Part shown: one piece after another, positions 1 through 49,458 of the stretch | Layout: each line of letters begins with the position of its first letter | How positions within the stretch are numbered: the stretch's first letter is position 1 | Assembly (NCBI GenBank): GCA_041653675.1 | Contig: JBAZEY010000004.1 | Span: 1,105 to 65,104 of the forward strand | From: Patescibacteria group bacterium | Lineage (GTDB): Bacteria > Patescibacteriota > Patescibacteriia > XYB2-FULL-38-15 | Length of the DNA stretch: 64,000 nucleotides | Direction: 5' to 3' | Position numbers and translations under genes: made by a program | The notes under the pieces: generated by a model | Database searches by the model: none | The model's input: the letters and a program-made list of their open reading frames with translations, nothing else | What the model was told of the DNA's origin: nothing

Positions 1-3000
1 GATGCAAGCGGCGTCGGCGGAATGGGCAAAGTCAGAGTTATTACAGGCCGCACGACCAAGATGATTTTTGTAACGGGCGTCTCTGCTGCCGCTTCTCACA
101 CCACCCGGTCCTATACCCCAATCAACTTGGACGCTTGTGATTGGGCCCGCGTTCTTATCGGCAGTGCCGAAGAATTGCATAGTCGCAACATACTGTCCGC
201 CGTAGCCGACGACGTTTATGGGTTCGGTGACGCCCGTTCCCGTAAAGCCGAAACCAGAGATACCACCGACCGTGACTCCGTTGATCAACATAGACGCCAC
301 CTCCGTAAGCGGTACGCACTTGTCGCCGGTACAATTTGTAATAGGCCAAACCTGCGGCACTGAGGGCCAATCCGATGTCGGAATACTCGGATCAATTTTA
401 TCGGTAATATTAATTGCGTTTCTTTGATCCGCTGGGTAATCGCTATCTCCGGGCAACCGATATGCACCAAGCGATTGTATTCCCGCATTTGAATCCCAGA
501 CCATGAAGCCATACGATTTAGCAAAAATCTTTTTCAAACGCTCCTTGGCTTTTGTTAGTGCTCCAGCATCTTCAATCGTAACTCTTGGCGGCGGAGCGTG
601 AAGGTCTGCGGCTATACATTCTCCGGGCATTAGGGCACCGCTACAAGTATATGCCCAACAACCATTGTCACTCTGGCATTTTAAACCTAATCTAGCTCCC
701 CCATTACAATCGCCGAGCACTATGCCGGGCGCGGGACTCTTAGAAGTCCTGCAATTATTTACCCAATCAGAGCTTAGGCCAGTAACGGGCACCGCGGTGC
801 TGGCACAGTAGCCGCCCGTGGAGCCACTGATAGCAGTACAAGTCTCTCTACTCGGGCAGGGATTGGCCGTATTGCAAAATTGATAACACTGATAACTTAC
901 GCAATTAATGTTTGTGGGGGGCGACGTCGTCGTATCGACATTGCATTCTTGCGCCGTGAAACAAGACGCAGCCGCGGGTGGGGCGGCTCCTTCCGGCTCC
1001 CCTATCCAAAGATACGGCCGAGATTCATTGCGGATTGTTCTATCCGTTTCTCTTTTTATTTCATAGCCCGAAAGACAAGTGTCCTCAGTCAATGGGTCAG
1101 TCGGGAGATTTATTGCTTTCTGGTCCGTCTTTAAACAAGTGGGAACGCGAAGATTAGTGTCAACTGGTGGGTTAGCTAGGCCAAAGGGCGTTTTCGGCGT
1201 ATTGTACGAATAATTAATTGACGGATAGAGCGCATTGGAGAAAACATAAGGAACGGAAGAAGTACGAGATGGACTGGAAAATTCCCAGACACGATCGGTC
1301 CAGGCCTTGTTTGAATCTAAACTGCTTAGATCTCTCGAAACTTGCGCCGCAACTTTGCAACCAATAAACGAATTTGCGCCGATACTCCGAGAAGGAGACG
1401 CATCCTTTTGGCAGTCGTTAAAATCATTTATACTTCTTCCCCCCGGGTGATCGCTAAGGTCATTCAAAATATAATAATCAATTTTCCCATCAGGGGCCCC
1501 CACAGGAAGTACGTCTTGGCGATTATTGATAAGACTACCAAGCGCCTCAAGATTGCAGGCCTGCCCTACGTTGGGGTTAGAAGGATCAGCATGTTTGGAA
1601 TTTTTTGGCACGCAACGAAAAGGAGCACGATTGTACATGTAACTAGTACACATACCGCCAGATTCGCATGGCGCCAAAACTACCCAATCTGTGTTTGTAT
1701 CGCAGCATTTACCTTCGTCATTGCAGAAATATCTACCATCGAACCCGCAGTCAAAAGCATTACGTGTTTCTTCCCCGGGATCTCCGTCGCATAAATCATC
1801 TGTCCCACACCCCAGCGGCCCCGCTGTGAACGCAAGATGAACTACCGACGGCCCCAGAGAAGCGCAATAATAACCATCGCTGGTTCGCAAAACCGTGTAG
1901 GATTCCGGGGCTAAACAAAAGTTGGCATTGACTATGGAAAAACCTGCTTCGGGGTAGTTATTATAAACATCCGGCGCGCCGGGGATTTGATCGATCGGAT
2001 ACCAGGTAAGACAAGCAAATTTGCTCGGATCACCATTGATGGAGGTAGCTGTGTCGCGTTCAAGACAATACCCTTGCCAGCCGATAACATCATCTTCTCG
2101 CTGATACCTAACGCAATCCGCGCCCGTGCCAAGACAATCCGTGGGAGCGTTGCATATTTGTCCGGGAGTGGAACCACCGACGCAAACATCCGGAATAGGA
2201 AGTGCCGAACTTGAACCCACCTCCGTTGAAAAATATTTAACAACCGACCCACCGCTGTAGGAAATTTTTCTATAAGAACATTCACAGGCGTCAGGATTTG
2301 TACCCGTGCAAGTTCCTCCCGCGCAGCTTCCTGCTGTTCCGTCACAATCACTATCTCCTGCACAACTATTGCCAATTTCTGTTCCTCTGACACAAACTTT
2401 GGCGCTGCAATCTTCGTTTCTCGTACACGCTCTCCCGTCCATTCCTCCGCCTTCACAAATTTTTTCTGTTTCGCAAACATTGGCTCCGGCAAAACCCGAC
2501 TTTTTGCTGGTGACGGTCCAACCGCCGGCAGAATTTCTGGTGGCTATAGTTACAGTATCCGGGAAGGGCGACGATTGCTCAGGATAAGCCCGACAAGAAG
2601 CGGTTTCTGTGTTGGTTGGGTCAAGAGATAAAATCGCGCCCGGAACAAAGGGATCGCCGCGGAAATTTGTCACGCAGAGGTGGTTGTAACACTTACCGCG
2701 ATCGCCGCAACGAGAACCGTTTATGTTACTGTCACAATAACCGAGAGAATCCGCACCACAAGAAATTTTTGTCGTTCCATCGGCGTTGAAACAACGATCT
2801 TCCACAAAAACTAAAGCGAGTTTAGAATTTTCCGGGGTGCCGATATTTATTCCGCGCAGATCGGGCGCTTGATATTGGTTATAGATGGAGTCGCCGGAAT
2901 AATCCATTCCTTTGAAAGTAGTATCGCGAGAAACATATAACTTTTTGCTCAAAATCTGGCGCGACGTTTCCGACGTAAAATTGGAGTCAGTACACTGCGC

Positions 3001-6000
3001 AGTGGCTTGGCCGACTTTGGCGTATTTATGACAAGACGAAACCGTATCGCAAAGAGTCTTTTGTCGTCCGGTTTGCGAATCAAAAGTTGAAGTCGTACCC
3101 GAACAAGTCAGCCACTCGCCGCAGACACGATCGCGACGGACCTGGACAAGACGGTTGGAATCATTGCTATTATTGGCAACAGTAATGGGCGTTCCGTCCT
3201 TTTCCAACAAAATCACATAAGGCGAATTATAACTATAGTTTGCGACATCCTGACAACCGAGAGTGGACGACTCGCCGGGGAATCGCTGCGCGCAATCGCT
3301 GTCCGCGCCGCAGAAATCGCCCCAATAATATTCATGGTTCGGTGGGCGAAGAATTTTTTCCAAGCACCTCTTACAATTTTCCCCGCCTTGGCTACAATCA
3401 ATCGGCGCGACAAGCCCGCCGGGATCACCCACCTTTTTTTCAGAACTTAAATAAGTCGCGTTGGCATTTTTGTTTAATTGCGGATTGCTTGTGTCGTTGA
3501 ACAAAACACAACCGCTTTTTTGCGAAGCCATTCCATTACAATTTCCCGAACTAATTTTGTCGTTGTTAACATAATAATAAGCCGCGCCGTACGGATCGTC
3601 GGAAGTGTCGCCCGGATCGGTAAATTTAGTGCATTGATCAGCCTGCGGAATACATTCACCCGCCCAACCGGAATACGGGCAAGAACGTTTGTTATAAGAG
3701 ACAGTGCAAGTTGTTCCAGCCTTACCCGTAGCTGTCACACCCGCCGTGCCACCGCCAACCGGAACCGGACCGCAACGACAAACACCATCGCCGTCTCCTT
3801 CCGGATCAATGCCGTCTCCCGGTTTATCTTGACAAACATAGGGCAGACTGCAATTGGCATCACCATTTTTCCAAATATTATAATATCCGCCGTTGAAGTT
3901 TGCCGGATCGCAAGGAGTAAGCGGGTCGGATGCTTTTTCTTGTTTTTTAAACCATCCGGAAACATTTTGCCCGCCAAGATTTACATTATCTTTCCATTCA
4001 CAAAGTCTATTTCCCGGATCTTTAAAATATAATTTTCCGCCGTCGGTCGTGGTATACTCTTCGCAACTCAAGAATCCAACTTGGCAGAGAATTCTGCCGG
4101 TCGGAGAATTATATAACGCCGGATCGGCCAGGAGATTTACCGTATTGTAAACCGGCTTGCCGCTATCGTCGATTTTCACATTGCCCGCGGCATCCAAGGT
4201 CGGCGAACCGAATTCAGCGCAACCTTTGTTTTGCGCGGCGCATTTATACGCATCGTTCACCACGATATAGGCAAAAGAGTCGGTTGGAATAGTAACGTTG
4301 TCAGACAATCTTTCCTCGTCCGAGAGAGACGGATCACTATCGTTTTCCGTATTAAACGTCTCCATGCTCGCCGCTATGTTGTTGTTGGTCTTTAATAATT
4401 TAGCGCAACCGGCCGCGTCGGGCGAACAAAGCCGCGAGAATGATTTTAGATAATGAAGTCCGTTCGCGCGATCATAGTAACTCGCGCAACCGAGTTGGGC
4501 TTGCGGCAAAAGCGCGGAAAGAACACATTCGTTTCGTTCACTCCACGATCCCCCGCTCGCGACACAAAAATCCAAACTGGTAATTGATGTGTTAACCGCG
4601 AAAGACCGGTCGCAGGAAGTTGGCGTCACCCAAGAATTTTTAACCACATAAATGTACGACTGAATTTCTCTCAAAATAATATTATCGAGATAAACCGGCG
4701 TCGTTCCGCCCGCCGCGGCAATTCGTAAAGTTTCGCCTCCGCCGACAACATCCCAATCAACATAAACCGGACCAAGTGAAAAATATCGCCAGTCAAAAGA
4801 AAGATTAGTTACGTTTCTTGTCGCTGAACTAAATCCCTTATCAGCGGAAGTGGCGCCCAAAAATTTAATATCCAATCTGCTATTTCCCTTGGCCCAAAAA
4901 GACAAGGTGTAAAAGCCATTTTTCCGGACCGAGGAAGCAAGATTTTTATCTATCGTCCCCGTGGCGCCGAAAGACAAAGATTTTCCGCCGACAACCAATG
5001 ATTCGGAACTTATAGTCGGTATGTCTGCTTCATCCCAACCGGTTGCCGCGCCATCGGCGGCGTCATCAAAAGTATCATTCAAAATTACCGCCGTGTTTGC
5101 TCCGGCATTTCCGCGATAAGCCCGGCATCCGACCGCTTCGTTTCCACATGATCGTGATTCGGGCAAATAAACATTATAAGCACATTCACTCTTTACCGTG
5201 TCCCATCTCCCCCCCGATGAGCCGCAATCACTGGCGCTGGAAATTGTTTTGCGGTATGGGTGGCAATCGTCAGTCGCGACGATTGTTTTGGAATATAGAC
5301 GATAATGTTTTAAACCGGCCGCGTCATAAAATTCTCGGCAGTCAGGATTAGTTAAAGTATCAGCTTTAGTACAAAGGCCAACCAAAGAAAGTCCATCGCA
5401 AGTTAAGCCGTCGGGCATAAGAGCCGTACATGGAGGAACACCGCCGTCCGGAGAAACGCCGTTACCCGGATCGCTGTCCGAAACCGGAGCGCTAACTACG
5501 TTACTCATTTTCAAATTCCAAGTTTTTAACTGATATCCAGTCGTATCAGATCCCTCCCAAGTATAGAAAGACTTCGAAGTCGCGCCTGGTTTTTCGCAAC
5601 GGCGGACATAATTGAAATTTGCCACGGCTTCATTTTCCAAACTCGTGAATTGATCGCAGCCAACATCCGCGGCGCTGCAAGTTCGCCCGGTCGCAGGAAT
5701 AAAATATACCGGAAATTTATCTTGTTCAAAATCAGTTTCAACTTGTTTAAAAGTCTGATAGCCAACGCACTCGGCCGGACAATAATCATCAGGATAATTA
5801 GCTACGCCTGGCACTGACGGATCACCATTTGTCGGTCGGTATTCATCGCAGCCCACGTCTTTTTCTTCGCAAGCCCTGGCAAAATTTCCGCATTGCTCGG
5901 CATCGTTTGTTTTATTCAATGCGCCGGAGGCGGTGTAGTCATAGCAAGAATAGTAATCCGGCGCGGTTTTTAGATAAAGCGCTTCGCCCGTTCTTCCCCA

Positions 6001-8409
6001 ACCTTCGTGATATTGCGAGGAAAAAGTTCCTTCTTCAAGCTGCACTGCGTCAATCAGACATTCGGGAGAGGCATTTCTTATTAAAACTTCGATTGTCGTG
6101 CTCGCGTCGCCCGACGGGAAGGTATGGATCGGGCCGTTAATTCTTCTGTACGATGTTGAATTCTCAAAATTCCCGCCAAGAACCGAAACTCCACCAAAAG
6201 TAAAATAATCCGTTGCCGCTTCTTCTCCGCAATTTTTTGCGTATAAACTTAAAGTAAAAGTCCGGTCGCCCCGCGGCGAATCAAGATTTACCACTTGCCT
6301 TACAGTCCCCGCCAAATTCAACGCCTTTTGTCCAAAATAAGTGTCCGAAGAGGAGGAAGCGGTACCACTCGTGGTTGACCATCCGGAAATAACGGGGGGT
6401 GTCCCGGAAACATTTTCAAAACTGCTGTTATTAACTAAATTTAATTTTGTATCTGAGGTTGTTCGTAAAAACTCATTACAGCCAGGCTCATCGCACTGAG
6501 TAATATTTTTATTAAAGAAAATTCTGTCGCTGCGGCGGGCGGCGGTTCCCGAACCCGTGAGAGTATCCTGCCACTGCCAGATATCCCCCACTTTTAATTG
6601 CCGATCCGAATACCAACGGCAACCGATATCGTCGGCGTTGCAAGGCGGACCATAATCAACAGTGTTCGTAACGTAAGCTACGTTTTGTCCATCGCTTTTT
6701 CTTAAAAGTTTACAAGTATCATATTGCGCGTCGCACTTATCACCGTCCAGCCGCCAAATATTTTTTTCTCTTGTGCAATAACCCCAGCCGCCTTCGCAAT
6801 TTCCCTGATCATCTTCGGCAATACAAGTCGGTGAATCAACGCAGGTTTCCTGGCGGAAACTATTTTCCGTGGTTTGAAGTAATGGACCATAAACCCGCGC
6901 CCGGCATTGTTCGGCCGGCGCTTTCAAAATCCAGTCTGGATCGATTAAATGACAATATTTGTGTTCCGCATCAGCCTCACCCGCGGCATTACAATCGTGA
7001 AAACGATCAACTACTTCTTTTAAACTCACTGGCTCGAGAGATGTCTGACTTTGCGCGGCGATTTCCCAACCAATGGAAATGATTCTCGCTTTTCTAAGTT
7101 TTACCAAATTACTGTAACAATAGCCGTAAGTATAACAATTTGGATCCTGATTTTTTGCCAAATTGGAAGGAGGAAAAAGCGGCCATTTGCCGTTCAAGTA
7201 CTCTTGTTCAATCGCCTCACCCACGGTAAGCGCCGCGCCGGTTTGCGCTTGCCGCACCCCGGCTTCAAATTTTCCATCCATCACGCAATTATTTGTTCCT
7301 TTAAATTTTTCGGGACAAACTATAAAATCCGACAAAATATCATAAGCGCCGCCTTCTTTAATTTGCGGCACGAGTAAATCGGCAAAAGCAAGTTCCGCCG
7401 CGCGACGTCCGCCCCAAGCTGTTCCCTCTGCCGAAGTCGCGTCGTCCCCTTCCGGGAAAAGATCTGCTAGGGAATACATGCCCTTGCTAAAAATATTCTC
7501 CATTGTTTTTGAAAGCAGCGTGCTAACAAAAGTAGAAACCATCATTGAGAGTATTCCTTGCGCTCCGGCAGAAAGCGCTTGACCGGACAAACTCCATTTT
7601 AAATTTTCCGCTTGAACCGGACCTTCTGTTTGTATTTGCGAAGTCTGACGAATAACCTCCGACGGAGTTTTAACTTTTCCACTGATTAATTCTGACGAAG
7701 GGAAAAATCCCTGCCCCTCTTCTCGGGTTAAGGCCGCTGTTTCCGAAGCGCTCTTTTCCACGCCAAATGCCCCAACGTATGCGCTCATGGCCAAATCAAG
7801 ATCTGTGCCCGCGCCATAGCCAATTTGGAATTGCGAAGCCGCTTCTCTTAAAAAATCTTCTGTCTGCACTTCAGCAATAAATGATTCCCAGTTTGAACGA
7901 ATTGATGACCATTCGCAAGTCGGCGGCGGCAATCCATCGGCATAAGTTTGAGCTAGTTGCAGCTGGAGAGCGAGCCCCAATCTCGGGTTTGGCGGGGCGC
8001 AAAAATTAACGCCAACCATATCGCCAAAACTTCCGATAAATTCACCTGCCGCGTCCAGAGCGGCGCTCTCTAAATAATCCCCCCACCCTTCCGTGGAGAA
8101 AAGCGGCATTTGTCCGTTTCCGCCAGAAGCCAAACTCACAGCTAAATCATAAGAAATTTTTTGCATGAAACGCGAAGCAGCATTAATCAAAGCCATCGTT
8201 CCGGCATTAACTACCAAAACTTTCAAAAAATCTTTTATATTTTTAATCGTTGTCTGAGTACTGGTTATTGGATCGGAAACAACCAGCTGCGCTTCGGCCG
8301 GATGGGCATAAAAAAAGACGCCGCTTAAAACCTGCGTCAAAATAAAAAATACTAAAACTGTGCTGACAGTCCATCTTCTCACTTTATGATTTTTTTGGAT
8401 AAGAGACAT
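1..8409 (-). CDS. Giant secreted Cys-rich surface protein, partial (N-terminal >=2803 aa in window; C-terminus beyond window start)
   Basis: ATG at 8407-8409 (minus strand). Hand translation gives MSLIQKNHKVRRWTVSTVLVFFILTQVLSGVFFYAHPAEAQLVV (signal peptide) and stays open for the ~970 nt checked, and again at nt 1-180. No minus-strand ORF in this frame appears in the track across 8.4 kb, as expected for one open frame with no in-window stop. Cys-rich modules read as CxxGxC/DCDG around 2300-2480. Confidence 0.6.
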   Translation of the reverse strand, partial: MSLIQKNHKVRRWTVSTVLVFFILTQVLSGVFFYAHPAEAQLVVSDPITSTQTTIKNIKDFLKVLVVNAGTMALINAASRFMQKISYDLAVSLASGGNGQMPLFSTEGWGDYLESAALDAAGEFIGSFGDMVGVNFCAPPNPRLGLALQLQLAQTYADGLPPPTCEWSSIRSNWESFIAEVQTEDFLREAASQFQIGYGAGTDLDLAMSAYVGAFGVEKSASETAALTREEGQGFFPSSELISGKVKTPSEVIRQTSQIQTEGPVQAENLKWSLSGQALSAGAQGILSMMVSTFVSTLLSKTMENIFSKGMYSLADLFPEGDDATSAEGTAWGGRRAAELAFADLLVPQIKEGGAYDILSDFIVCPEKFKGTNNCVMDGKFEAGVRQAQTGAALTVGEAIEQEYLNGKWPLFPPSNLAKNQDPNCYTYGYCYSNLVKLRKARIISIGWEIAAQSQTSLEPVSLKEVVDRFHDCNAAGEADAEHKYCHLIDPDWILKAPAEQCRARVYGPLLQTTENSFRQETCVDSPTCIAEDDQGNCEGGWGYCTREKNIWRLDGDKCDAQYDTCKLLRKSDGQNVAYVTNTVDYGPPCNADDIGCRWYSDRQLKVGDIWQWQDTLTGSGTAARRSDRIFFNKNITQCDEPGCNEFLRTTSDTKLNLVNNSSFENVSGTPPVISGWSTTSGTASSSSDTYFGQKALNLAGTVRQVVNLDSPRGDRTFTLSLYAKNCGEEAATDYFTFGGVSVLGGNFENSTSYRRINGPIHTFPSGDASTTIEVLIRNASPECLIDAVQLEEGTFSSQYHEGWGRTGEALYLKTAPDYYSCYDYTASGALNKTNDAEQCGNFARACEEKDVGCDEYRPTNGDPSVPGVANYPDDYCPAECVGYQTFKQVETDFEQDKFPVYFIPATGRTCSAADVGCDQFTSLENEAVANFNYVRRCEKPGATSKSFYTWEGSDTTGYQLKTWNLKMSNVVSAPVSDSDPGNGVSPDGGVPPCTALMPDGLTCDGLSLVGLCTKADTLTNPDCREFYDAAGLKHYRLYSKTIVATDDCHPYRKTISSASDCGSSGGRWDTVKSECAYNVYLPESRSCGNEAVGCRAYRGNAGANTAVILNDTFDDAADGAATGWDEADIPTISSESLVVGGKSLSFGATGTIDKNLASSVRKNGFYTLSFWAKGNSRLDIKFLGATSADKGFSSATRNVTNLSFDWRYFSLGPVYVDWDVVGGGETLRIAAAGGTTPVYLDNIILREIQSYIYVVKNSWVTPTSCDRSFAVNTSITSLDFCVASGGSWSERNECVLSALLPQAQLGCASYYDRANGLHYLKSFSRLCSPDAAGCAKLLKTNNNIAASMETFNTENDSDPSLSDEERLSDNVTIPTDSFAYIVVNDAYKCAAQNKGCAEFGSPTLDAAGNVKIDDSGKPVYNTVNLLADPALYNSPTGRILCQVGFLSCEEYTTTDGGKLYFKDPGNRLCEWKDNVNLGGQNVSGWFKKQEKASDPLTPCDPANFNGGYYNIWKNGDANCSLPYVCQDKPGDGIDPEGDGDGVCRCGPVPVGGGTAGVTATGKAGTTCTVSYNKRSCPYSGWAGECIPQADQCTKFTDPGDTSDDPYGAAYYYVNNDKISSGNCNGMASQKSGCVLFNDTSNPQLNKNANATYLSSEKKVGDPGGLVAPIDCSQGGENCKRCLEKILRPPNHEYYWGDFCGADSDCAQRFPGESSTLGCQDVANYSYNSPYVILLEKDGTPITVANNSNDSNRLVQVRRDRVCGEWLTCSGTTSTFDSQTGRQKTLCDTVSSCHKYAKVGQATAQCTDSNFTSETSRQILSKKLYVSRDTTFKGMDYSGDSIYNQYQAPDLRGINIGTPENSKLALVFVEDRCFNADGTTKISCGADSLGYCDSNINGSRCGDRGKCYNHLCVTNFRGDPFVPGAILSLDPTNTETASCRAYPEQSSPFPDTVTIATRNSAGGWTVTSKKSGFAGANVCETEKICEGGGMDGRACTRNEDCSAKVCVRGTEIGNSCAGDSDCDGTAGSCAGGTCTGTNPDACECSYRKISYSGGSVVKYFSTEVGSSSALPIPDVCVGGSTPGQICNAPTDCLGTGADCVRYQREDDVIGWQGYCLERDTATSINGDPSKFACLTWYPIDQIPGAPDVYNNYPEAGFSIVNANFCLAPESYTVLRTSDGYYCASLGPSVVHLAFTAGPLGCGTDDLCDGDPGEETRNAFDCGFDGRYFCNDEGKCCDTNTDWVVLAPCESGGMCTSYMYNRAPFRCVPKNSKHADPSNPNVGQACNLEALGSLINNRQDVLPVGAPDGKIDYYILNDLSDHPGGRSINDFNDCQKDASPSRSIGANSFIGCKVAAQVSRDLSSLDSNKAWTDRVWEFSSPSRTSSVPYVFSNALYPSINYSYNTPKTPFGLANPPVDTNLRVPTCLKTDQKAINLPTDPLTEDTCLSGYEIKRETDRTIRNESRPYLWIGEPEGAAPPAAASCFTAQECNVDTTTSPPTNINCVSYQCYQFCNTANPCPSRETCTAISGSTGGYCASTAVPVTGLSSDWVNNCRTSKSPAPGIVLGDCNGGARLGLKCQSDNGCWAYTCSGALMPGECIAADLHAPPPRVTIEDAGALTKAKERLKKIFAKSYGFMVWDSNAGIQSLGAYRLPGDSDYPADQRNAINITDKIDPSIPTSDWPSVPQVWPITNCTGDKCVPLTEVASMLINGVTVGGISGFGFTGTGVTEPINVVGYGGQYVATMQFFGTADKNAGPITSVQVDWGIGPGGVRSGSRDARYKNHLGRAACNNSDFAHSADAACI

Positions 8410-8420: not shown

Positions 8421-9182
8421 TTATTTTTTCACCGTCTCTTCAAAAATTTTCATCAACGTCGCGTCGTCAACGCTATTTAACGTTGATTCGCTAACTCCGG
8501 CTTGGCGTAAAATTTCTCTGAGTTGCGCCGGCGTCATTTCGTTCGCATTAACATTGGTCGGCAAGGAAGAATTTATATTGGCATTAACATTACCGCCTCC
8601 CGCCACCCCGCCGGATTCTTTTAAAGTTTCATTGTAAAGTTCCAGAAGAGTTTCGTCGTCAAGGTTTGCGAGCGTCGCTTCGTCAACTCCGGCGGTTCGA
8701 AGAGCATCCCGGACTTCTTCTGCTGTCGCCGTACCCGTCAAAAATCCCCCAAGCTCTTCTTCTACCGAAACCTCTTCCGGAATTGTCTTGGCTTTTGCCG
8801 CGCCCTCTTCTATTTTTAAACAGGTTTTCCCTGCCGTACAATTTGGATCGTTCCCTGAAGTTACTTCTTCTTTATCGGAAAAACCATCTGAGTCAGAGTC
8901 GGCTAAGTACGCACTTGTACCATAAAGATATGTCTCGTCGTAATCAGTAAACCCATCACCGTCAGTATCGGTTTCCTGCATCGTGGCTAATCTTTCCGCC
9001 TCTTCTTCAAACTGTGTTTTCCACAACCCCTTGTCTTGGCCATATTTTGCAAAAGGAGCGCGCAAATATTTTGGATATTGCCAAATCGTTCCCAAAACTA
9101 TAACCACGCTTAAAATAACCAAAATCGTCACTCCGACTCTGATTCGGCGCTCTTTTCCCGGTTCTTTTTTGATTTCTTCCAT
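8421..9182 (-). CDS. Single-pass membrane protein with thrombospondin type-3-like DxDxDG Ca-binding motifs and a tandem ~36-aa C-terminal repeat
   Basis: N-terminal TM segment VGVTILVILSVVIVLGTIW. Motifs TDTDGDGFTDYDE and DSDSDGFSDKEE. Two repeats of the form AEEVRDALRTAGVDEATLANLDDETLLELYNETLKE. Stop lies 11 nt upstream of the giant ORF start. Confidence 0.7.
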   Translation of the reverse strand: MEEIKKEPGKERRIRVGVTILVILSVVIVLGTIWQYPKYLRAPFAKYGQDKGLWKTQFEEEAERLATMQETDTDGDGFTDYDETYLYGTSAYLADSDSDGFSDKEEVTSGNDPNCTAGKTCLKIEEGAAKAKTIPEEVSVEEELGGFLTGTATAEEVRDALRTAGVDEATLANLDDETLLELYNETLKESGGVAGGGNVNANINSSLPTNVNANEMTPAQLREILRQAGVSESTLNSVDDATLMKIFEETVKK

Positions 9183-10084: not shown

Positions 10085-10530
10085 AAATAAATTAAAAATT
10101 AAAAATGTAAAATTAAAAATTACAATTAAAAGTTCAAAATTACTTCCTGCCCTTGGTACTCATAATAATAGCGGCTAGTATACGCGACAGTTCATCAGTT
10201 TCTTTTAAAAGTTTGTCAATGTTTAATTTCTGGCCGTCGCGAAATAGACCGAGCCAGTATTTTGTTTCGTTGGCTGATTTAAGGGCAATAGTTAAAAAAT
10301 TTATAAAATCTCTTCGTGAACCGGCGGCCTGAGCTTCAATAATATTCGCACCGATACTCGTGGCGCAGCGCAGAAGTTGTTTGGCCATTATTTCAACAAT
10401 CCAATCTTTTCTATCTAACTTCTTAAGAAAACACAAAATTTCTAAACTAAAAATATAGGCGCGTTTTTTAATGTCAATTTTTAATTTTTCATTGTAATTT
10501 TGCATTTTTAATTTTGAATTTTGAATTAAA
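10085..10530. repeat. Inverted-repeat-bounded cassette carrying the four-helix-bundle (IVS-protein/Avd-like) gene
   Basis: Left arm near 10097-10127 is aaaattaaaaatgtaaaattaaaaattacaat. The reverse complement of the right arm near 10487-10517 is aaaattaaaaatgcaaaattacaatg. Confidence 0.5.
10140..10505 (-). CDS. Four-helix-bundle protein (23S rRNA intervening-sequence protein family, TIGR02436/PF05635; same family as DGR Avd)
   Basis: ATSIGANIIEAQAAGSRRDFINFLTIALKSANETKYWLGL matches the family core. The likely start is the internal MQNYNEK, not the upstream extension that overlaps the MFS gene. Confidence 0.8.
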   Translation of the reverse strand: MQNYNEKLKIDIKKRAYIFSLEILCFLKKLDRKDWIVEIMAKQLLRCATSIGANIIEAQAAGSRRDFINFLTIALKSANETKYWLGLFRDGQKLNIDKLLKETDELSRILAAIIMSTKGRK

Positions 10531-11680
10531 TTAACGCGTACAACGCCGTCATTGCCGCGGCTAAAATAAAAAGCGCGATCCAACTATCCGGAAAAAAGAA
10601 AAGAGTGACAAGGGCAAGCGCGCTCACAATAAGTTTTCCCAAAACTAGAGCCATCTGAAGAAAAATAACGCAATTCATCACGCTGGTTTTTTTCGCTTCT
10701 TCGTAAGTAATAGACGCGAGCGGAACGCCGACGGTTCTTCTTGAAATTCTGTATAATGAGTCGGTCATAAAAACGCCAACTCCGGAAATTACTAAAACTC
10801 TCATAAGCCAAGTAAAGGCCGTAAAAATAACTCCGATTTTTAAAACTTCGTGTCTTGACTCTTCATCCGTAATTCTTCCAATATATAAGGTTAAAATTGT
10901 TGCCACAAAGACGGAGGCAGAAATTAAAAATCCGATGGAAGCATAGGCCGGAATCATTAAAAAAATAAAAATTGGCCAAAGATAACCGGCCAAATGTTCT
11001 TCGCCAAAACCAAAATAAGAAAAAAGTTTTCGTCGATTCTCGGGCGCGACTAGCCGCTTCATTGAATCCCGATAAGAAAAAGGTACTGGCTCAAATTTTT
11101 CCGGAGTGGTGAGAAGAGGGATATTGGAAACTAGAATCAAAAAGGCAACAATAATAAACAAAACTTTAAATCCGACGGTCGCAATGACGACGCCGCCGAA
11201 AGCCGGTCCCAAAATCATTACGATAGAATCAAGCACCACTAAATTGGAAATCTCCCTGCCGCGCGATCCATCTTTACCGAAACGAGCAAAATCGGCGTGG
11301 TAACCCGGCCAATAAAGCGTTTTTTGGATGGCTAAAGAAATGACCGCGCTTACAATAAAAAAAGGATGGTAGGGAATGGCAAACAACGACAAGTAAAAGA
11401 GAATTAAAAAGGGCGTGGAAAAAAGTATGGCGTGTTCGTAGCCGCGACTACGGGCAAATTTTCCGCCAAGCGGTACTAATAAAAAGTACAGGGCGTAAAC
11501 GGCAATATAAAAAATCAAAATTTTGGATAAAGAAAATCCCAGGGTGTAAAGATAGATAGGCTCAAAAACGCCAACCGCCGAAACGGCAAAATCTAAAATC
11601 GCCGTCGACCAAAAAAGCTCCTTTAATTCCCGCGACATGCCATCCGCGAAATAACGATGATAAAAATTACGTAAAAACAT
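10526..11680 (-). CDS. Polytopic membrane transporter, MFS-like
   Basis: About 12 predicted TM helices across 384 aa with Gly/Pro-rich loops; no specific substrate motif recognised. Confidence 0.6.
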   Translation of the reverse strand: MFLRNFYHRYFADGMSRELKELFWSTAILDFAVSAVGVFEPIYLYTLGFSLSKILIFYIAVYALYFLLVPLGGKFARSRGYEHAILFSTPFLILFYLSLFAIPYHPFFIVSAVISLAIQKTLYWPGYHADFARFGKDGSRGREISNLVVLDSIVMILGPAFGGVVIATVGFKVLFIIVAFLILVSNIPLLTTPEKFEPVPFSYRDSMKRLVAPENRRKLFSYFGFGEEHLAGYLWPIFIFLMIPAYASIGFLISASVFVATILTLYIGRITDEESRHEVLKIGVIFTAFTWLMRVLVISGVGVFMTDSLYRISRRTVGVPLASITYEEAKKTSVMNCVIFLQMALVLGKLIVSALALVTLFFFPDSWIALFILAAAMTALYALI

Positions 11681-22104: not shown

Positions 22105-23094
22105 CTACAAACTCAATTTAAAACTCTTTATCATCATTTCAAAAGTGCTTTTATAATTCAATTCTGTTTTGCCCCCGAGACTATACGTAATGGCATAAAT
22201 TTTATCCCCCGAAGCGAAATAAGCTGTAAGCCCGTCAGGACTCTTTTTTCCGAGAAGGCCACTCTTAGTCATAACATCACTAAGTTCAGATGGACTAGTT
22301 CCGGGTGACTCAGCTAAATACCAATCCAAAAGCGGCAAACGATTCTGATTATCATCAATAACTACTTCTATAAGCTCTCCCGTGGCCGAAGTGAAAAGAA
22401 CTTCTCTCCCCGTTTCATCAAGAGCTCTCGCGATCCAAAGTGATGGATAAAAAACAGAATATTTAAAAGCTTGGCTATTATAAATTTTTACTAAATTTGT
22501 TTCTTCAATTTTCTGCGGAGCGAGGCCTGTCGGGTTATATAAATTTAAAATTTCCAGCGCGTCAGAATAAGAATCACCGTCGGTATCCGCGGTATTTTGA
22601 TCTGTACTAAACAAAGTTTCTTCAATGTCTGTTAACCCATCTCGGTCAGTATCAGCCGACGACGGTAGTTCAGCTGACGGCTCTGGCAATGGCGCGGGAC
22701 AATCGGCAAGGCATGTGATAGTACTCTCCCCTGATTCGCATGTGCCATTTCCACAAACTGGCGCCGGAGGAACATTAACAGGAACATTTACCGGAGTATT
22801 AACTGGCGGTACGTTCGCATTCACGGGCACGTTTGCCACCGTGTTGGTGTTAGCTGACGGCGTGGTGCTAGTCTTTGGTTTGCTGGTCAAACTTTGAGTA
22901 AAAAGATAGGCCGCAACGGCAACTAAAATTATAACAATAACAGCCATCGCAATAATTAATGTTGATTTTGACCCGCCGCTCTTCCCTTCCTTCGGAACTT
23001 TTACTTTCTTAAAATAAAATTGCTCCGGCATGGCCTTAATCTCGACCGGCGGTTCTTCGGCAATATTAATTGGTTTTGGCTCTCCGTTTGGCAT
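22105..23094 (-). CDS. Single-pass membrane protein with Pro/Val/Asn-rich linker, one CGNG Cys module, TSP3-like DxDxDG repeats and a C-terminal globular domain
   Basis: TM segment LIIAMAVIVIILVAVAAYLF; NVPVNANVPPVNTPVNVPVNVPP linker; CGNGTCESGE module; DTDRDGLTDIEE and DTDGDSYSD motifs. Confidence 0.65.
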   Translation of the reverse strand: MPNGEPKPINIAEEPPVEIKAMPEQFYFKKVKVPKEGKSGGSKSTLIIAMAVIVIILVAVAAYLFTQSLTSKPKTSTTPSANTNTVANVPVNANVPPVNTPVNVPVNVPPAPVCGNGTCESGESTITCLADCPAPLPEPSAELPSSADTDRDGLTDIEETLFSTDQNTADTDGDSYSDALEILNLYNPTGLAPQKIEETNLVKIYNSQAFKYSVFYPSLWIARALDETGREVLFTSATGELIEVVIDDNQNRLPLLDWYLAESPGTSPSELSDVMTKSGLLGKKSPDGLTAYFASGDKIYAITYSLGGKTELNYKSTFEMMIKSFKLSL

Positions 23095-23356: not shown

Positions 23357-24007
23357 TTATGGCTGCTCCAATAATCTTCCCGGCCCTTTCGGATTATATC
23401 CGGCTGTCACTTCCGCTCCATCCAAATATCCGTCACCATCTGTATCGGGATTTAAAGGATTAGTGAAATAAAGATTGACCTCGTCGCCATCTGTAAGCAC
23501 GTCGCCATCTGTATCGGGGTTTGTCGTATCAGTCCCGAGAGCTATTTCTTCTGTATTAGTTAAACCGTCACCATCTAAATCAACTTCTCCTGGGGCGGGA
23601 ATAACCGGCGCAGTTTCCAGAACTTCCGGTGGAACCTCTGCCGGCGTTTCATTAATATTGGATGGAATTTCAGCTGGAATATTTACTAGCGGCAAATTGG
23701 TATTTTGATTAGAAACGGTCGGAGTTTGTGTTCCAGTTTCTTCGGGCGCACTAGAAAATTGTCTCCAAACAAAATATCCGCCGCCGCCAAGAATTACAAC
23801 TAAAATCACGGCCGCTAAAACCAAAAACATTTTCTTTTTCCCCGGACCCCCAGCTTCCTCGCCGACTTCTTCCGGAGTTGCACCAACAGAAGCGGCTCCC
23901 CCGGGCATGCCGGGCACGGTCGGCGAAAGCGCGCCGGCCGGTCTTAATGGTTCTTGTTTCGTCGGCTCCACGCCGGCAAACATGTCTTCTGGTTCTTTGT
24001 CAAACAT
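23357..24007 (-). CDS. Single-pass membrane protein with TSP3/dockerin-like DxDxDG Ca-binding repeats
   Basis: TM segment FLVLAAVILVVILGGGGYFVW; motifs VDLDGDGLTNTEE, NPDTDGDVLTDGDE and NPDTDGDGYLDGAE. Confidence 0.7.
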   Translation of the reverse strand: MFDKEPEDMFAGVEPTKQEPLRPAGALSPTVPGMPGGAASVGATPEEVGEEAGGPGKKKMFLVLAAVILVVILGGGGYFVWRQFSSAPEETGTQTPTVSNQNTNLPLVNIPAEIPSNINETPAEVPPEVLETAPVIPAPGEVDLDGDGLTNTEEIALGTDTTNPDTDGDVLTDGDEVNLYFTNPLNPDTDGDGYLDGAEVTAGYNPKGPGRLLEQP

Positions 24008-24062
24008 AAATGTAGATAATTATTTTTAATTTACAATGAATGTTTAAATTTTTTAATTTTTT

Positions 24063-27000
24063 CTATCTCACGGTAAACTCACCGCTTCGCTCTTGACCCA
24101 CAGTAGTCATATCACTGCCTCTAAATAACTCTCCTTCACTGGCAGAAAGACTCCAGACAAGAGCAGATCCAGTTCCAGTGCTAAGATTGTATCTCCCCGC
24201 GCCAGTTGTGCCATTGTAAACAATCCGGAAATTGTGCAAACCTCTTGATAAAGTACTGATCACTAGATCTCTTCTGCAATCCGGTGTAAGTCCTCCGCCG
24301 GGAGCAGCACATATACTGGCATTAGTTATACCAACCTTATGGCCATCAATATAAACTTCAAAAACATCAGCCGCATTATTACTGCTCACATGCAGACTTA
24401 TCGTCGCACAGTCCGTCGCGTCATCCATACAGCCGTCGGTTCCACTATCATCATTCGGATCGCAAGCGTCAATTATTTCATCACTGTCAGTATCTGGGCT
24501 ATATCTTAGCCTGCAGGTTTCGCCAGCTGGACAATCACCAGTAACTCTACAAATCCGAGAAGCAGTAGCGCTACAGGTTCCCGTAGATTCATATTTTCTA
24601 TTATCACAAGCCCGACCCGTGGCGCAAGTAATCGCGCAAGACGAAGGACTGCAACCCGGCGAAGTCGGTGTGGTGAGATCTTGTGGCTTGCCCCAAGGAT
24701 TTGAAGTATCAACACAAATCCAACTCGCGGGATATGCCGGCAGACGGCTATCGCATTGTTCCGCGCCGCTCACTGTCCCATCGCCGCAAGTCGGACCGCT
24801 CGCCGTTCTTAACGTGCATTCACGGCTGCAATAATTACAAGTTGATCCATATGGCGCCGTACAAGGCGTACCGTTTACATCTTCGCCGGAATCGCACGTT
24901 TCTATTCCCGCTCTCGTAAATCCATCACCACAACTAGAATTCTGGCAATCTACACAAGCGTCTGTATCTACATCATTTGCGTCATCGCATTGTTCACCAC
25001 CTTCAACCGTGCCATTGCCGCATTCGCCGGTTACTGTGCAAACACCCCAACCTTCATCTCGCCACTGGCATTGTCTTACATCTCCCGATACCTCGCATTC
25101 CAAGGTTCTAACGCGCGGATATCCCGTCCCGGCTTCCGGAGAACACAATAAACATTCTTCTTCTGGTTCCGCGCAGTCCGAGTTGCTCTCACAAACTACA
25201 TTAAAATCATCTGAAAGAATGGGGCTGGCCGGACTCAAGTGTTCATCAACCGGAACACAAACTCCTCTCCCGGACAATAAATTTCTATCACATTCTTCTC
25301 GACCATCGGTCACGGTATTTCCGCAAAATGGCGCCGACCCGACACAACCCGCCGCGCAAATCGGTCGACAAGTGCTGCCCGGACAATCGCTGTCCACACG
25401 ACACGACGATCTATCATTATCACAAATTTTTCCATAATTTCCATTAAGACCTTCATCGTCGCACCGCTCGCCAAATCCGCTTTGCAAAATTCCATCTCCA
25501 CAATAACCGCCACTCATTCGGCAGACAGTAGAACATTGATATTCATTCGTCGGCAATGTCCCGCCTCCCGGAATTCTTCCTCCGCCCGGACCGCGATCGC
25601 AAGCTTCACCCGTATCAATAATCCCATTTCCGCAAGTAGGAAGACACGACCCCCAATCATTCCATCGACAAGTAGCTAAATTACAAGTTCGGCTTTGCCG
25701 ACCCGTTCCACTGCCGCAAGATTGTTCGCTCGTGCGGCACGTTCCGCCCGTAGCAACGCAATCCAAATCACTGCGGCAAAAACTTGTCGGATCCGAAGAA
25801 CATGTATTTAATAAACTCGGTTCGCATTCTTCGGCTTCGTTTTCCGGCGTCGCCGGATTATCAACATTTAGTATTCCATCACCACAAACTCCACCCACAC
25901 TGAAAGTTGTACCATCGCAAACATTTTCATATTTAATGTAGGCTGGAATAGCGTCTCTAAACCAACTCCAACTCGGAAGAATTATCGCGCCCGATGAATT
26001 AGTAAGCTTGTGTTCCAAATCACCGCCAATATTATAAAATCCCGTAGCTGATTCGTAACGATATTGGTAAATATGAGACAAATCGGGACAGTGGTAAGAT
26101 TCTGCGCTCGTGTTCCAACAAGTGTCAGGATTATAAGGATCTACGCAACCCTGAAATTTATTTACCGGATCTTGTGGTAATCCTCCGCCGAGTTCCTGCC
26201 CAAGCACGGCCCATGAATCCCACTTGCTCGTGGAAATCCCTCGAACATACGAACCGGCTTCCAGTTTTGGCGGATAACCTCGCGTCATCATATATCTTTC
26301 CACCTCGGCTTTGATTTTATCTAAATCAGATAAACGTTTAACATCACGGGCCAATTTATCTTTTGGCGCATCACACAAAGATTGTGTCGGAGTTTGTGGA
26401 CAATCCAAATCAGCCGAACAAGGAATCGCTTGATCATCTTCGTCCGTGACAGTTGCCGCGCCGCGCTTACAAACTTTATTATTTTCCAAATTAATATTAA
26501 AATTCCAATTTTCTACCAATTGATTATAAATATCAATTGTGTCCTGGCTGGCATCTTCATTATATGAAATCAAATAAACGTTTGTATAAATGTCTGGCCC
26601 GGAACTAGAGCCGCCAATAAGCGCCGGCTGGTTTGCCGCGGAAACATAAATTGTCCGACCATCTTCCACGGCTTGATATTGATCAACCGTTTTCCCACTC
26701 GGAGACGCCGGTCTGAATCCTTGGGCCGTGTACCAATCGGATAAAGCAAGGTGGTTTTCATTTGTATAAATTCTAATACCGATCGCGTCGGGCGAAGATT
26801 GGCAAGATCCGCCTTCCGGGGCGCACGGATTTTCCGTGTTACAAGGCAATTTGGAAAGGGTACAATAACTCCCCTGAACAAATAAGAAATATTCTCTGAG
26901 TAAAAAGTCAGATGATCCCGGCGGCTCCGGCGGATTATTTACAATCGGCGGATCGCTAACCGTCGGTAAATCATCGCTAAAACCAAGCTCTCCTCTGTCC

Positions 27001-30000
27001 TGGCAATAATATGTTTCAAAATTATATGTTTCATCAGCTAACCCTTCGCCCGTCACGCCAAATCTATCTGGCCATGGATTTTCACAAAGAAAAACTATCG
27101 CGTCGGCCCCGCTACCCAACACTCGTCCCACGGTTCGGGGAGATAAAATTGTATCGGCAGTAATTCTCGCTGAAACTAAAATTCTTGCTTCTCCGTTTTT
27201 ATTTTCCGCTTTCGCCTCTTGGCTAGCATTAAGTTCGCAAACTCCGCCGTCTCTACAATCGCTCGCGCTGTGACAAATTGCAGTCGATTCATTGGAACAA
27301 GCGCCTTCGGGATTTAAGCTAACTACTGTTGGATCGTTAGACACCCAATCTTCCCATTGCCAAGCGTACACCCCGGGCAAGGAAGAAATCGCTCTCCCCC
27401 GCGTGTCTCTCGGTATGGCGGAAAAATTGTGTGTTTCACCACTCTGCGTAAAAACATGAACCTCCGGCGTAAATGTCACTTGGCTCAAAGCACAAATGTC
27501 ACCGCCCGTCTTAAACGACCATTCATAAATTTCCCTGCCGCTGTAGGCCGCGGGGTATTCACCGGATAAGCTACCTCCACCCAACGCCACGCCTTTTGAA
27601 TTTCTAATCCCCTCAATCTCGGGCGTTGTAGAATTGTCACCTAAAATCAAAACTCTATAGTCATTATCACTATCAAAAGCTTTAGTTGGACTAAAGCTTA
27701 CTTCCGTCACCAAATTTCCACCTTTATTTACAACAACAGACGACGCTGTTCCCGGCCAGACGCACCACGGACTTCCCGGCGCGGCGCTCGCCGGCTCGCC
27801 GAGCAATGATTGCCCAAATTTATTGACGAAATCTTTTACTTGGCTAAAAATCTTTAAATCATTCTCAATTTTATTAATCGGCTTAACCAATATTCTCGCA
27901 ATCGGCGGAGGCAGCCACTTCTTTATTTTTTCAAAAAATTGCCAACCGGATTTTCCTTCGCCGGTCCATAGAGCTAATTGTACCGTTCCGTCAGGACACG
28001 TCCCGCCGTAATTGCCGACGACTAAAATATTACCCGTGACGCTCGCTGTTTCCATTACATCGTCAAATGTCACAGAAATTCTGGCATTGCGGCAAACTTC
28101 AACCGCTCCTGAATCACAACCAACCGCGCCATCCCGAGTGGGATCGCAGTTTGTCACTTTTGGTTTAAAGTAGCAACATGTGTTGCGGCCAACTCCCAAT
28201 TCGCAATCAGCGTCAGTTGTGCAAGATTGTGAAGTTGTTCCTGAACATATATTAGAAGTTGAAATACACGACAAACGAATTGCACTGCAATCCTGACCGC
28301 CGCAGCGCAAAGTCAAATCGCCGCTGTCGGATTTTCCCTCTGTCGCGGCTGAAATTTCCGTGGTGCTGGAATTTACTCCGGCCGCCACGTCCTCCGTGGC
28401 AAGATCAATTGCTTCGGCCGTTTGGTATGGATCAATTCTCGCGTCCGTGACTGTTCCTTCATTTAAGCAAGTATCACTGCAACCCGGCCCTGGAGCGTTC
28501 CCATCGTCGCAATCTTCACCGCGTTCTTTCGCCCGATTTCCACAAACTCCCCCGCCAGCCACAGATCCTTCGTGTTGGCAAATATTATTACATCCATCCC
28601 CCGAACGAGTATTTCCGTCATCACAATCTTCGCCAATTTGAATTATGCCATTACCACAAGTTGAATCATAACGCGCGTTTGATCCTTCGTTCAAACAAGT
28701 CGCATTACAACCATCAAGCGTTGCCGTATTGCCATCGTCACAGTCTTCGCCAAATTCTTTTACGCCATTTCCGCAAGATGGATAATTATTATCATTGGTA
28801 ATTGTTGCCACTCCTGGATCAGCCGATGCCCAGCCCCAATTATAATCCATAGCACCAAGCTGCTGGCCGTTCGGGCTACAGAGATCTGGCTCGCTGAAAG
28901 GCGTGGAAGAATAATTTTGCGTCGCGCCGATAAAATTCAAAATCGCGTTTTGCGGATCAACTGCCACGCGATCCACGGCGCAAGGACTGGCATCATCTTT
29001 AGTTTTGAAAGTCCAAGAGTAAGCAGAAAAAGCCGCCGGGTCGCCGGCCGGATAATTTAAATCAGTCAAATGGACGCCGCTCGTTGAAGTAACACGATCA
29101 GAAATAACGGCGCGATAATAAGTATTCGGCGTAAAGAGCACTAAAGGCTCAATAACCATTTTTTTTGCGACCGAATCGTAAGAAGTTCCTGCCAGAGAAA
29201 CTTCCTCCAGAGCTCTCGTTCCTTCATTTAAACAAGTTGTCGCGTTGCAGTTGGCCGGGAATGGAGATCCGTCACAATCTTCACCTTCTTCAACCAGGCC
29301 ATTACCGCAAACCGCGGCGGCGCCATCGCTGCCGATATTTAAACATGTGGTGCGATTACAACGCTCCGGAAATGGCACACCGTCGCAATCTTCACCGGTT
29401 TCGCGGCGATCATTGCCACAGTACGAACCATAAAGCGCGTTTGACCCTTCATTCAAACAAGTCGCGCTGCAACCGTCGCCTGCCGTCGCATTGCCGTCAT
29501 CACAATCTTCACCGGGCTCAATCACGCCATTGCCGCATTTCCAAATATAAAGATTAACATTTGCCGCGCTCTCCACGCTCGCCTGATTCATGTTTGTATT
29601 AAATTCCGCGCCGACTTCCGCGTTAGCGCAAGCATCACTGCAGTTCGGCCACGCATTTTCTACTCTTGGGTCTGTAAAATTAATTGTCAAATTTCCTGAG
29701 CCAAATTTACTTTCACTTGGAATTCCGCCGGTAATTCGAACCGGCAAACCAACTTCTGTTTCCGCCCGAGCCGTGGCAACTTCACTCGGAGTAATACTAC
29801 CAGCCACAGTGGCTTTTGAAATATCTGACGAAGTCCAGCGCCAAGGACTATAAGCGCTGCAATCAATTGTTATGCAAACATCGCCGGCCGCATAACACAA
29901 ACTATCATAATTCTGTGTCGCCCCAATACTTACTAAAGTCCGTTCATACGGAGAAACCCCAACTAAACCGATATCACACGTCTCGTCGCTGTCGCGGGTT

Positions 30001-32975: not shown

Positions 32976-33034
32976 AATCCGGCCACACTAATATTTATTG
33001 CGAACTTAAAACGTTTTTGTCTTTTACTCTAATT

Positions 33035-34075
33035 CTATTTTAACGTGAATGTCTGAATAATCTGTCTCGCTTCATTTAAAATATCTTCATATTTCTGATC
33101 CTCCAAACCGGGCCTGCCAGCATAATCACCACCGCTTGTGTAATAAAAGGCCCACAGGTTGCTGTCTTTAATAAAAGTCTGCGGATAATCCACAACATAT
33201 GGATCATTTTTATCTTCAATTCTTACAATATTTATTTGCACGTAACGTCCATTGTCATTTTCTGAGGTTAGACGGAATGCTCTTATCTTAGAGTACCCAG
33301 GATCTGCCACCTGCTCTGCTTTTATTTTCCCCCAAGAAGCTGGAAATGTCAGAGAAAAACCATATGCACTATTTGTATAGGTCGTAGGGGCCGCAGGTGT
33401 TGAAAAATACAAAGCTACATCTGTCAATGTATCTTCGCACAAATTTAACGCGGCCACTTTTGCTGTGTAATCCGGTTCTTCCGGTTCCGGCGCGGCGCCA
33501 CCGCCACACCCGCCTTCCCAAAGTAATTTATCAGAATATGCGTGCAACGGACCAAACCCACCGACGTTACAGAAAGCAGTATTGTCATTACTAAAACCAA
33601 CAAATTTTTCGTTGGTCCAATTGTTGTAATTAGGGGTGACGACTAAAGTTAGGCCGTTTAAATTTAAAGTTTTTCGACTGCCGGTATTTGCTTGATCGAT
33701 AAAACTATTAAACTCCTGATTACTGCACTTTACTCCAACCAGCACGCTTGTATTTTCTTTATAAAGAGACCAATTTTCAACCTGGTCTACAATGGGAGCA
33801 ACACATTTTCCTTTATCGCAAACAAAATCCCCCAAACATGGCTCCGCCACGCTGCACTCCGGAGATTCTAACCGCGCTGTTAAATCGTCTATCTGCTGTT
33901 GCAGTGATTGCTTCGCGTTCGTTAAATTTTCCTGTGCAGTTTGCAATTGCATTGCCTGCCAAAAGTAAACTCCACCACCGACAATAAGGGCTGTGAGAAC
34001 CACGGAAATTAAAACCGTAGCAATGGTGGGAAATTTTTTAGGACTTACTGGCTGCGTGATTGGTTGGTTTTCCAT
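33035..34075 (-). CDS. Membrane-anchored hypothetical protein (N-terminal TM, coiled coil, Cys-containing ectodomain)
   Basis: TM segment IATVLISVVLTALIVGGGVYFW; coiled coil QENLTNAKQSLQQQIDDLTARL; CxxxxC pairs follow. Confidence 0.6.
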   Translation of the reverse strand: MENQPITQPVSPKKFPTIATVLISVVLTALIVGGGVYFWQAMQLQTAQENLTNAKQSLQQQIDDLTARLESPECSVAEPCLGDFVCDKGKCVAPIVDQVENWSLYKENTSVLVGVKCSNQEFNSFIDQANTGSRKTLNLNGLTLVVTPNYNNWTNEKFVGFSNDNTAFCNVGGFGPLHAYSDKLLWEGGCGGGAAPEPEEPDYTAKVAALNLCEDTLTDVALYFSTPAAPTTYTNSAYGFSLTFPASWGKIKAEQVADPGYSKIRAFRLTSENDNGRYVQINIVRIEDKNDPYVVDYPQTFIKDSNLWAFYYTSGGDYAGRPGLEDQKYEDILNEARQIIQTFTLK

Positions 34076-34103
34076 AAAGTTTTTAAATTACTAAATTTTA
34101 AAT

Positions 34104-35963: not shown

Positions 35964-35997
35964 AGTTAAATTTCTAATTTTGCGTTTTTGTTTTTGA

Positions 35998-49431: not shown

Positions 49432-49458
49432 ATCTTAAAAAAAATTAATTTCTAATTT

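Follow-up and report, generated by a model that had tools for sequence, protein, structure and literature searches.

A giant cysteine-rich protein and its small membrane partner encoded at a conserved chromosomal locus of Patescibacteria

The minus strand of positions 1–8409 of a 64,000-nucleotide stretch of Patescibacteria DNA (contig JBAZEY010000004.1, positions 1,105 to 65,104; hereafter the window) carries codons 1–2803 of an intact gene of 2907 codons for a giant cysteine-rich protein (hereafter the giant) of an ultrasmall bacterium. Together with the gene directly upstream, which encodes a small protein with one transmembrane (TM) helix and TSP3-type repeats, it forms a constant two-gene cassette. 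From the sequences we suggest, with a probability of about 0.55, that the giant is a Sec-exported surface fibre or adhesin that would dock on its membrane partner and contact host glycans or envelope components. Patescibacteria account for a very large share of bacterial diversity, and those in cultivation live attached to host cells; we know of essentially no contact molecules outside Saccharibacteria.

Gene extent and integrity

Translation of the window revealed that the minus-strand frame running from position 8409 to position 1 has 2803 codons, no stop and an ATG start at 8409–8407, as the initial annotation of the window had read it. Each of the five remaining frames across these 8.4 kb has 77–199 stops, and the open minus frame is therefore beyond chance. 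The gene was absent from the open reading frame (ORF) listing because its frame passes beyond the window edge. A protein search returned a full-length match of 2907 aa (P0001), annotated at NCBI as a hypothetical protein of a Patescibacteria metagenome-assembled genome (MAG), with 100% identity over the whole query; the in-window translation (residues 1–2803) is an exact prefix of this protein, and the earlier estimate of at least 2803 aa is thus replaced by a true length of 2907 aa. The whole gene was also present on Logan contig L001, an independent assembly with 0 mismatches to the window over 14,329 nt. Extension past the window edge, which had been proposed as a check, was read on this contig: the coding sequence continues for 312 bases past window position 1 and then meets a TAA stop.

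On comparing the giant frame with two relatives of 77% amino-acid identity, nucleotide differences at codon positions 1/2/3 numbered 379/284/908 and 362/265/866. This excess of third-position differences indicates purifying selection on the giant frame. Since the frame is both intact and under purifying selection, the gene is real, and the plus-strand ORFs within 1..8400 are antisense artefacts, as had been supposed. The chance that the frame is decayed, non-functional or an assembly artefact is negligible. The sole grounds for such a reading are the hypothetical annotation and the MAG origin; against it stand 2907 codons without an in-frame stop (the feature that would have marked a pseudogene), the same sequence in the independent assembly, substitutions biased to third positions and more than 2000 related clusters, and we dropped it for these reasons. 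As a finding on the window the result is otherwise ordinary, a real long gene that lay beyond the reach of the ORF lister.

Family size and distribution

The protein search gave 222 significant matches among 8000 scored candidates, and the 120 listed were 2374–3307 aa long. Source names among the matches listed were Falkowbacteria, Uhrbacteria, Parcubacteria or Patescibacteria. Collinear full-length homologues shared 28–65% identity with the giant. A profile of the N-terminal helical domain (N-domain) detected 2210 clusters at 50% identity, 966 of them at E<=1e-30. Among the best 150 of the 2210 clusters, the N-domain was N-terminal in 150/150 and nearly all proteins were 2500–3800 aa long; the shorter members among these 150 are probably fragments. 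The constant N-terminal position in proteins of giant size indicates a monolithic architecture rather than a shuffled domain.

A scan with one genome per species found relatives in at least 452 genomes. The distribution is wide yet lineage-restricted, the genome records of the lineage being titled Uhrbacteria, Falkowbacteria or Parcubacteria, and the giant gene is chromosomal and passed on vertically within a Patescibacteria lineage. Many giant-bearing records were titled 'uncultured Gammaproteobacteria bacterium', and further ones Kapaibacterium, Methylomirabilis or Acutalibacteraceae. Such non-Patescibacteria titles (L005, L012, L013, L017, L020, L021, L074 and many others) probably denote mislabelled or mis-binned records; examples of the 'Gammaproteobacteria' kind, OZ246416.1 and OZ246400.1, are chromosomes of roughly 0.9 Mb, for which the label is probably wrong.

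Export and domain organization

Residues 1–40 (8290..8409; all coordinates given for the giant are on the minus strand) form a predicted cleavable Sec signal peptide, in agreement with the initial annotation, which called it classic. Basic residues K7, K9, R11 and R12 precede a hydrophobic core at residues 13–35, and the c-region reads HPAEA↓Q, with AEA↓Q at residues 38–41. A40 was conserved in more than 90% of a 118-sequence family alignment; AxA was present in 190/220 family members and AxAQ in 122/220. The conserved AxA supports cleavage by signal peptidase I, a gene for which is encoded within the window. The predicted mature N-terminus after AEA is QLVVSDPITSTQTT, and the N-terminal peptide expected from this cleavage would be QLVVSDPITSTQTTIK.

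The stretch at residues 13–35 was the single hydrophobic segment of the giant (Kyte-Doolittle window score above 1.5), and hydrophobicity windows over the full protein showed no C-terminal hydrophobic or TM segment. A search of the whole giant for LPx[TSA]G or LPxTG found none. With neither this motif nor a C-terminal hydrophobic window, the sortase-anchored (LPXTG) class was ruled out; the S-layer (SLH) class was likewise ruled out, there being no SLH or wall-binding match in Pfam or NCBIfam. The RTX/Bap-type class was considered and rejected.

A conservation profile of the same 118-sequence alignment showed a gradient along the protein, with the N-terminal two-thirds conserved and residues 2200–2750 variable. 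The signal peptide is followed by the N-domain (residues 41–350; 7360..8289), which has few Cys and one conserved pair, C137/C165. An AlphaFold 2 (AF2) model of residues 1–352, built on a 30-sequence alignment, was all-helical with three long helices and a predicted local distance difference test (pLDDT) score of 59; Foldseek comparison of this low-confidence model with the PDB gave nothing better than E 1.5. Next comes the most conserved part, or core (residues 351–650; 6460..7359), delimited by conservation in the family alignment. The model of residues 345–660 (37 sequences; pLDDT 66) was confident only at about residues 375–495 (6925–7287), a small helical subdomain, and in Foldseek comparisons with the PDB and viral models no match improved on E 1. 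Neither phmmer nor profile searches of PDB sequences, run with the whole protein, the N-domain and the core, revealed a related structure. The domain search on the full protein that had been recommended came out empty: scans of P0001 with Pfam, NCBIfam and PHROGs gave no domain above threshold, the sole match being a sub-threshold one to VirB5.

Segment profile comparison (probabilities of 96% and 82%) revealed a Cys-hairpin module of about 100 aa in three copies: residues 543–647, inside the core; residues 815–921 (5647..5967); and residues 1301–1400 (4210..4509). The second copy matched the third with an hhalign probability of 96% (E 3.7e-9). The module was visible by profile comparison only, and BLASTP of the giant against itself showed no long repeats.

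Between the first two modules lies a lectin-like (CBM_4_9-like) beta domain (residues ~655–800; 6010..6447). This assignment is weak: the segment carries the pattern LNLVNNSSFE..GW and was aligned by hhalign to the second CBM copy with a probability of 78%, over 15 columns only. The second CBM_4_9-type domain (residues ~1107–1250; 4660..5091) was assigned through the homologues P0009 (30.5 bits) and P0014 (31.4 bits), which exceeded the PF02018 cut-off of 25.9 in a Pfam re-scan and whose matches align to giant residues 1107–1209. A precomputed CBM_4_9 match was recorded on about 60% of the homologues among the matches listed.

The central region (residues 1400–2200; 1810..4209) is conserved and Cys-rich, with many invariant Cys and C-x6-C hairpins. 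It is followed by an indel-rich region (residues 2200–2750; 160..1809) with occupancy of 0.28–0.66 and conservation of 0.10–0.31, the least conserved part of the giant and a candidate specificity region. The protein closes with a conserved Cys-rich domain (residues 2751–2907), of which residues 2751–2803 lie in the window (1..159); its C-terminus reads ...DNWGWC...FAGRVIVVPK.

In total the giant contains 140 Cys (4.8%), an even number, of which 81 are conserved in more than 90% of family sequences. The Cys-rich character proposed in the initial annotation therefore stands; the motifs it named do not, CxxGxC and DCDG occurring once each. The recurrent motif is C-x6-C, mostly as CxxxxxGCxx[YF], found 15 times compared to 6.6 +/- 2.3 in shuffled sequences.

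Partner gene and locus

The partner gene (8421..9182, minus strand) encodes a small single-pass membrane protein of 253 aa directly upstream of the giant, its stop codon lying 11 nt from the giant's ATG. In this protein a short basic N-terminus and a single TM helix are accompanied by a conserved RAPF motif, two TSP3-type calcium-binding repeats, a DPNCxxGKxC loop and helical repeats. We searched 80 fetched loci with a hidden Markov model (HMM) of the partner, 68 of which had enough upstream sequence. In all 68 the partner was directly upstream on the same strand, with a gap of mostly -25 to +15 nt, and ksgA was found upstream in 63/68. Three homologues of 30–36% identity showed the same gene order: prfA, epimerase, (major facilitator superfamily, MFS), ksgA, small protein, giant.

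The remainder of the window encodes housekeeping functions, including KsgA, RF (release factor), HtrA, NrdD/G, FtsZ/A, ParAB, tRNAs, Lon and aminoacyl-tRNA synthetases. These surroundings indicate chromosomal core DNA, not a mobile element. The next gene past the giant's stop lies on the opposite strand (14730–15344 of L001) and encodes a 204-aa Cys/Asp-rich putative lipoprotein (MTGCPDGDDCP...); genes downstream of the giant were not conserved between genomes. At 10140–10583 (minus strand), a homologue of the 23S rRNA intervening-sequence protein was found as a 147-aa ORF with a TTG start that overlaps the MFS gene. It was called as 121 aa in L001, and its true start is probably further downstream.

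Gene orientation in the window turns from minus to plus at about 39 kb and returns to minus at about 46–48 kb, and the cumulative GC skew was flat at 40–46 kb. parA and parB are located at 48571–50223, next to a cluster of tRNA-Leu and two tRNA-Met at 50311–50765. ARAGORN detected four tRNAs and Rfam three of them.

Proposed function

The giant has no covalent or TM anchor and is most likely held at the surface through its partner. We propose that it would leave the cell through Sec, with signal peptidase I cleaving on the C-terminal side of the conserved AxA (AEA↓Q in this protein). The mature protein of roughly 300 kDa may then fold outside the cell as a chain of modules stabilised by disulfides of its 140 mostly invariant Cys. 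Its conserved N-terminal third, comprising the helical domain and the core, would attach to the ectodomain of its partner, which would be co-transcribed with it, and this docking may depend on calcium. The two lectin-like CBM_4_9-type domains and the variable distal region would be presented outward, where the fibre or adhesin could touch glycans or envelope components of a host cell. An episymbiotic lifestyle has been deduced for Patescibacteria and is in line with an adhesin.

Several points weigh against this proposal. P0001 itself falls below the Pfam CBM threshold, and its N-domain and core match no solved structure and no curated family. Confidence in the structure models is no more than partial (pLDDT 59 and 66). 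It is gene adjacency alone that points to docking of the giant on its partner, and extracellular disulfides in a probable anaerobe are an assumption. Strong conservation in a housekeeping neighbourhood would also be unusual for a host-specific adhesin, and a structural role in the envelope fits these two features equally well.

The giant could accordingly be a structural component, such as an S-layer-like lattice, scaffold or spacer, needed for envelope integrity rather than for adhesion. We consider this rather unlikely, although the gene is syntenic, vertically inherited and placed beside the housekeeping genes prfA and ksgA in every locus examined, and the protein has an obligate membrane partner and high conservation along its full length, invariant Cys included. 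Pfam and NCBIfam detected neither SLH nor any other domain known from S-layers or from cell-wall binding, high Cys content is atypical of S-layer proteins, and the indel-rich variable region and CBM-type domains suggest ligand recognition instead.

The CBM-type domains also raise the question of a secreted enzyme or toxin, for example one degrading polysaccharide or cell wall, in which they would target a catalytic core at residues 351–500. CBM_4_9 domains usually accompany glycoside hydrolases. Residues 375–495 are the most conserved stretch, contain invariant D, E, H, K and R, and were confidently modelled as a compact domain. A link to cell-wall degradation has been reported for giant genes of other ultrasmall or predatory bacteria (bioRxiv 10.1101/2023.11.21.568195). 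This reading is nevertheless very unlikely, because the conserved positions are mostly Cys and structural residues and no catalytic family was matched in Pfam, NCBIfam, PHROGs or PDB. Our preferred interpretation is a partner-docked surface fibre or adhesin.

The second giant and its gene cluster

The window encodes another giant on the same strand (24063–32975, minus) with 2970 aa, 150 Cys and a T4SS_pilin (PF18895) domain at its N-terminus. Together the two giant genes occupy about 27% of the window ((8409+8913)/64000), the share given in the initial annotation. The two proteins are alike in size, in Cys-rich composition and in having an adjacent small TM/TSP3 protein. Only the 2970-aa giant has a VirB2-like T4SS_pilin domain, extra hydrophobic segments, DUF4215/TIGR02232, TIG, Big_5 and Big_7, none of which was present in P0001. 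In particular, P0001 had no match to T4SS_pilin at E<=1, so that the VirB2-like domain is missing as had been noted, and had one hydrophobic segment; it also contained no TIGR02232 or DUF4215 repeat, compared to 6 repeats in the neighbour. BLASTP between the giants detected no similarity (best E 0.15), and a paralogous relationship of the first giant to the second was rejected on these grounds.

The small single-pass TM/TSP3 protein of the second giant is encoded directly downstream (23357–24007, minus strand). The two TM/TSP3 proteins have a common DTDGDG...DxDxDG block and little else alike, and a giant plus a TM/TSP3 accessory may be a general rule. Directly upstream of the second giant (33035–35963, minus strand) are genes for a 619-aa protein with a second T4SS_pilin and Big_5 and for a 346-aa membrane protein without a clear family. 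The second giant and these neighbours thus make up a surface cluster of three or four genes, with no VirB4 or VirB6 nearby. Weak PsbP or PsbP_2-like matches (E 0.006–0.03) were found in uncharacterised proteins on both flanks of the second giant's cluster, at 22105–23094 and 33035–34075 (both minus strand), and the two PsbP-like proteins may be paralogous accessory proteins. The G+C content of the giant regions (1–8000, 24000–36000) was 0.45–0.50, compared to 0.38–0.43 in most of the window.

VirB5-like features of the N-terminus

The pilin domain of the second giant bears on a further reading, in which the N-domain of the first would be a VirB5-type minor-pilin module and the protein would sit on a VirB2-like pilus, at its tip or at its base, the pilus being built by Patescibacteria machinery like a type IV secretion system (T4SS). 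Display by a pilin module would then be common to both giants, the other one using its VirB2-like module. We regard this as doubtful.

The predicted mature N-terminus of the giant, QLVVSDPITSTQTT, resembles that of Agrobacterium VirB5, QFVVSDPATEAETL, both directly after AxA. AEA↓QLVVSDP in P0001 and ARA↓QFVVSDP in VirB5 both fit the motif AxA↓Q[FLW]VV[ST]DP; in each family AxA can be followed by Q-[FLW]-V-V-[ST]-D-P-x-T and a helical region, with [LI]PVxD as an alternative. The same two N-terminal variants, Q[FW]VV[ST]DP and [LM]PVID, were seen in the VirB5 alignment and in the giant family. The NCBIfam VirB5 model (NF010434) matched 4/30 members of the giant family (best E 0.0012), and NCBIfam gave a weak VirB5 match to residues 25–59 of P0001. 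DUF4141, a Pfam family recorded on several VirB5 homologues, matched 5/30 members (best E 5e-4), with no match in member 1. Comparison with the VirB5 alignment by hhalign gave a probability of 47% (E 2e-4). In the AF2 prediction (pLDDT 59) the N-domain is helical throughout, three of its helices being long, and two T4SS_pilin-domain proteins are encoded in the window. In the R388 structure, the N-terminus of VirB5 projects from the pilus tip, jutting from the pentamer like a pore-former (PMC9259494).

However, the likeness is limited to about 15–50 residues, signal peptide included, and the motif or the PVxD variant occurs in only 51/220 members. Every match was far under its curated cut-off; for NF010434 the score was 18.8 bits where 346 are required. 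Structures of VirB5 homologues, TraC and TrwJ for example, are expected among PDB sequences, and a profile search of these returned no T4SS protein; its single match was to an unrelated chain, that of a processing protease (E 0.77). Foldseek likewise gave no match, albeit with a low-confidence model. VirB5 itself is about 220 aa long and is encoded inside T4SS operons, whereas P0001 carries the motif near the start of a 2907-aa protein whose gene lies among housekeeping genes, and a search of the window and of three homologue loci (10-kb flanks) revealed neither VirB4 nor VirB6. In a survey of Patescibacteria T4SS, two genomes had a VirB4 of the MPF_T group; VirB5 homologues were reported for one of them, and these Gram-negative-type systems were ascribed to independent acquisition (PMC12102498). 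Because the likeness is short, sub-threshold and confined to a minority of members, and neither VirB4 nor VirB6 was found beside the gene in the loci searched, we did not take VirB5 as the explanation.

If, against these doubts, the N-domain were a divergent VirB5-type module, the lineage would display giant disulfide-rich adhesins on a T4SS-derived pilus, the neighbour by way of its VirB2-like module, with the TM/TSP3 proteins acting as assembly or docking factors. The T4SS survey in Patescibacteria detected VirB2-like pilins widely and did not find PrgB-type adhesins (PMC12102498); display through VirB5 and VirB2 modules would, if true, name the adhesins that were sought and went undetected in that survey.

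Significance and comparison with known systems

The giant gene takes up about 1% of a genome of roughly 0.9–1 Mb. With 2210 clusters, and with a fixed position and a dedicated partner across hundreds of species, the family is a candidate, open to testing, for a surface or attachment structure found throughout the lineage; a family model of its own, structural work and cryo-electron tomography would be well directed at it. The literature searches turned up no account of this family. Giants reported earlier are strain-variable or orphans, whereas this one is encoded by a core gene that is conserved and syntenic and has its own partner.

One known domain for comparison is CBM_4_9 (PF02018): homologues exceed its cut-off at the equivalent of residues 1107–1209, whereas P0001 remains sub-threshold and has no catalytic domain alongside. 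In Patescibacterium danicum, of a related Patescibacteria lineage (class ABY1), giant predicted exoproteins with FhaB domains have been interpreted as host adhesins (PMC11809585). Those proteins exceed 4900 aa and have no full-length homologues, suggesting rapid evolution (PMC11809585); the family of P0001, in contrast, is collinear and conserved and gave no FhaB match.

Also comparable are the large Cys-rich, predicted extracellular proteins with signal peptides of Ca. Peribacter riflensis, a member of the candidate phyla radiation (CPR), which were proposed to serve in attachment (PMC4736985). Like P0001, they are large, unannotated proteins with a signal peptide and several per cent Cys in small-genome putative symbionts (PMC4736985), and P0001 fits the descriptive class of large Cys-rich CPR proteins (>1000 aa, signal peptide, several per cent Cys). 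The Peribacter proteins form a strain-variable multi-gene cluster and weakly resemble Myxococcus Cys-rich repeats (PMC4736985), whereas the gene for P0001 keeps to a single conserved, syntenic locus beside that of its obligate partner, and the protein is conserved over its full length across at least 452 species. The giant belongs to this general kind of protein but to a different, unannotated family.

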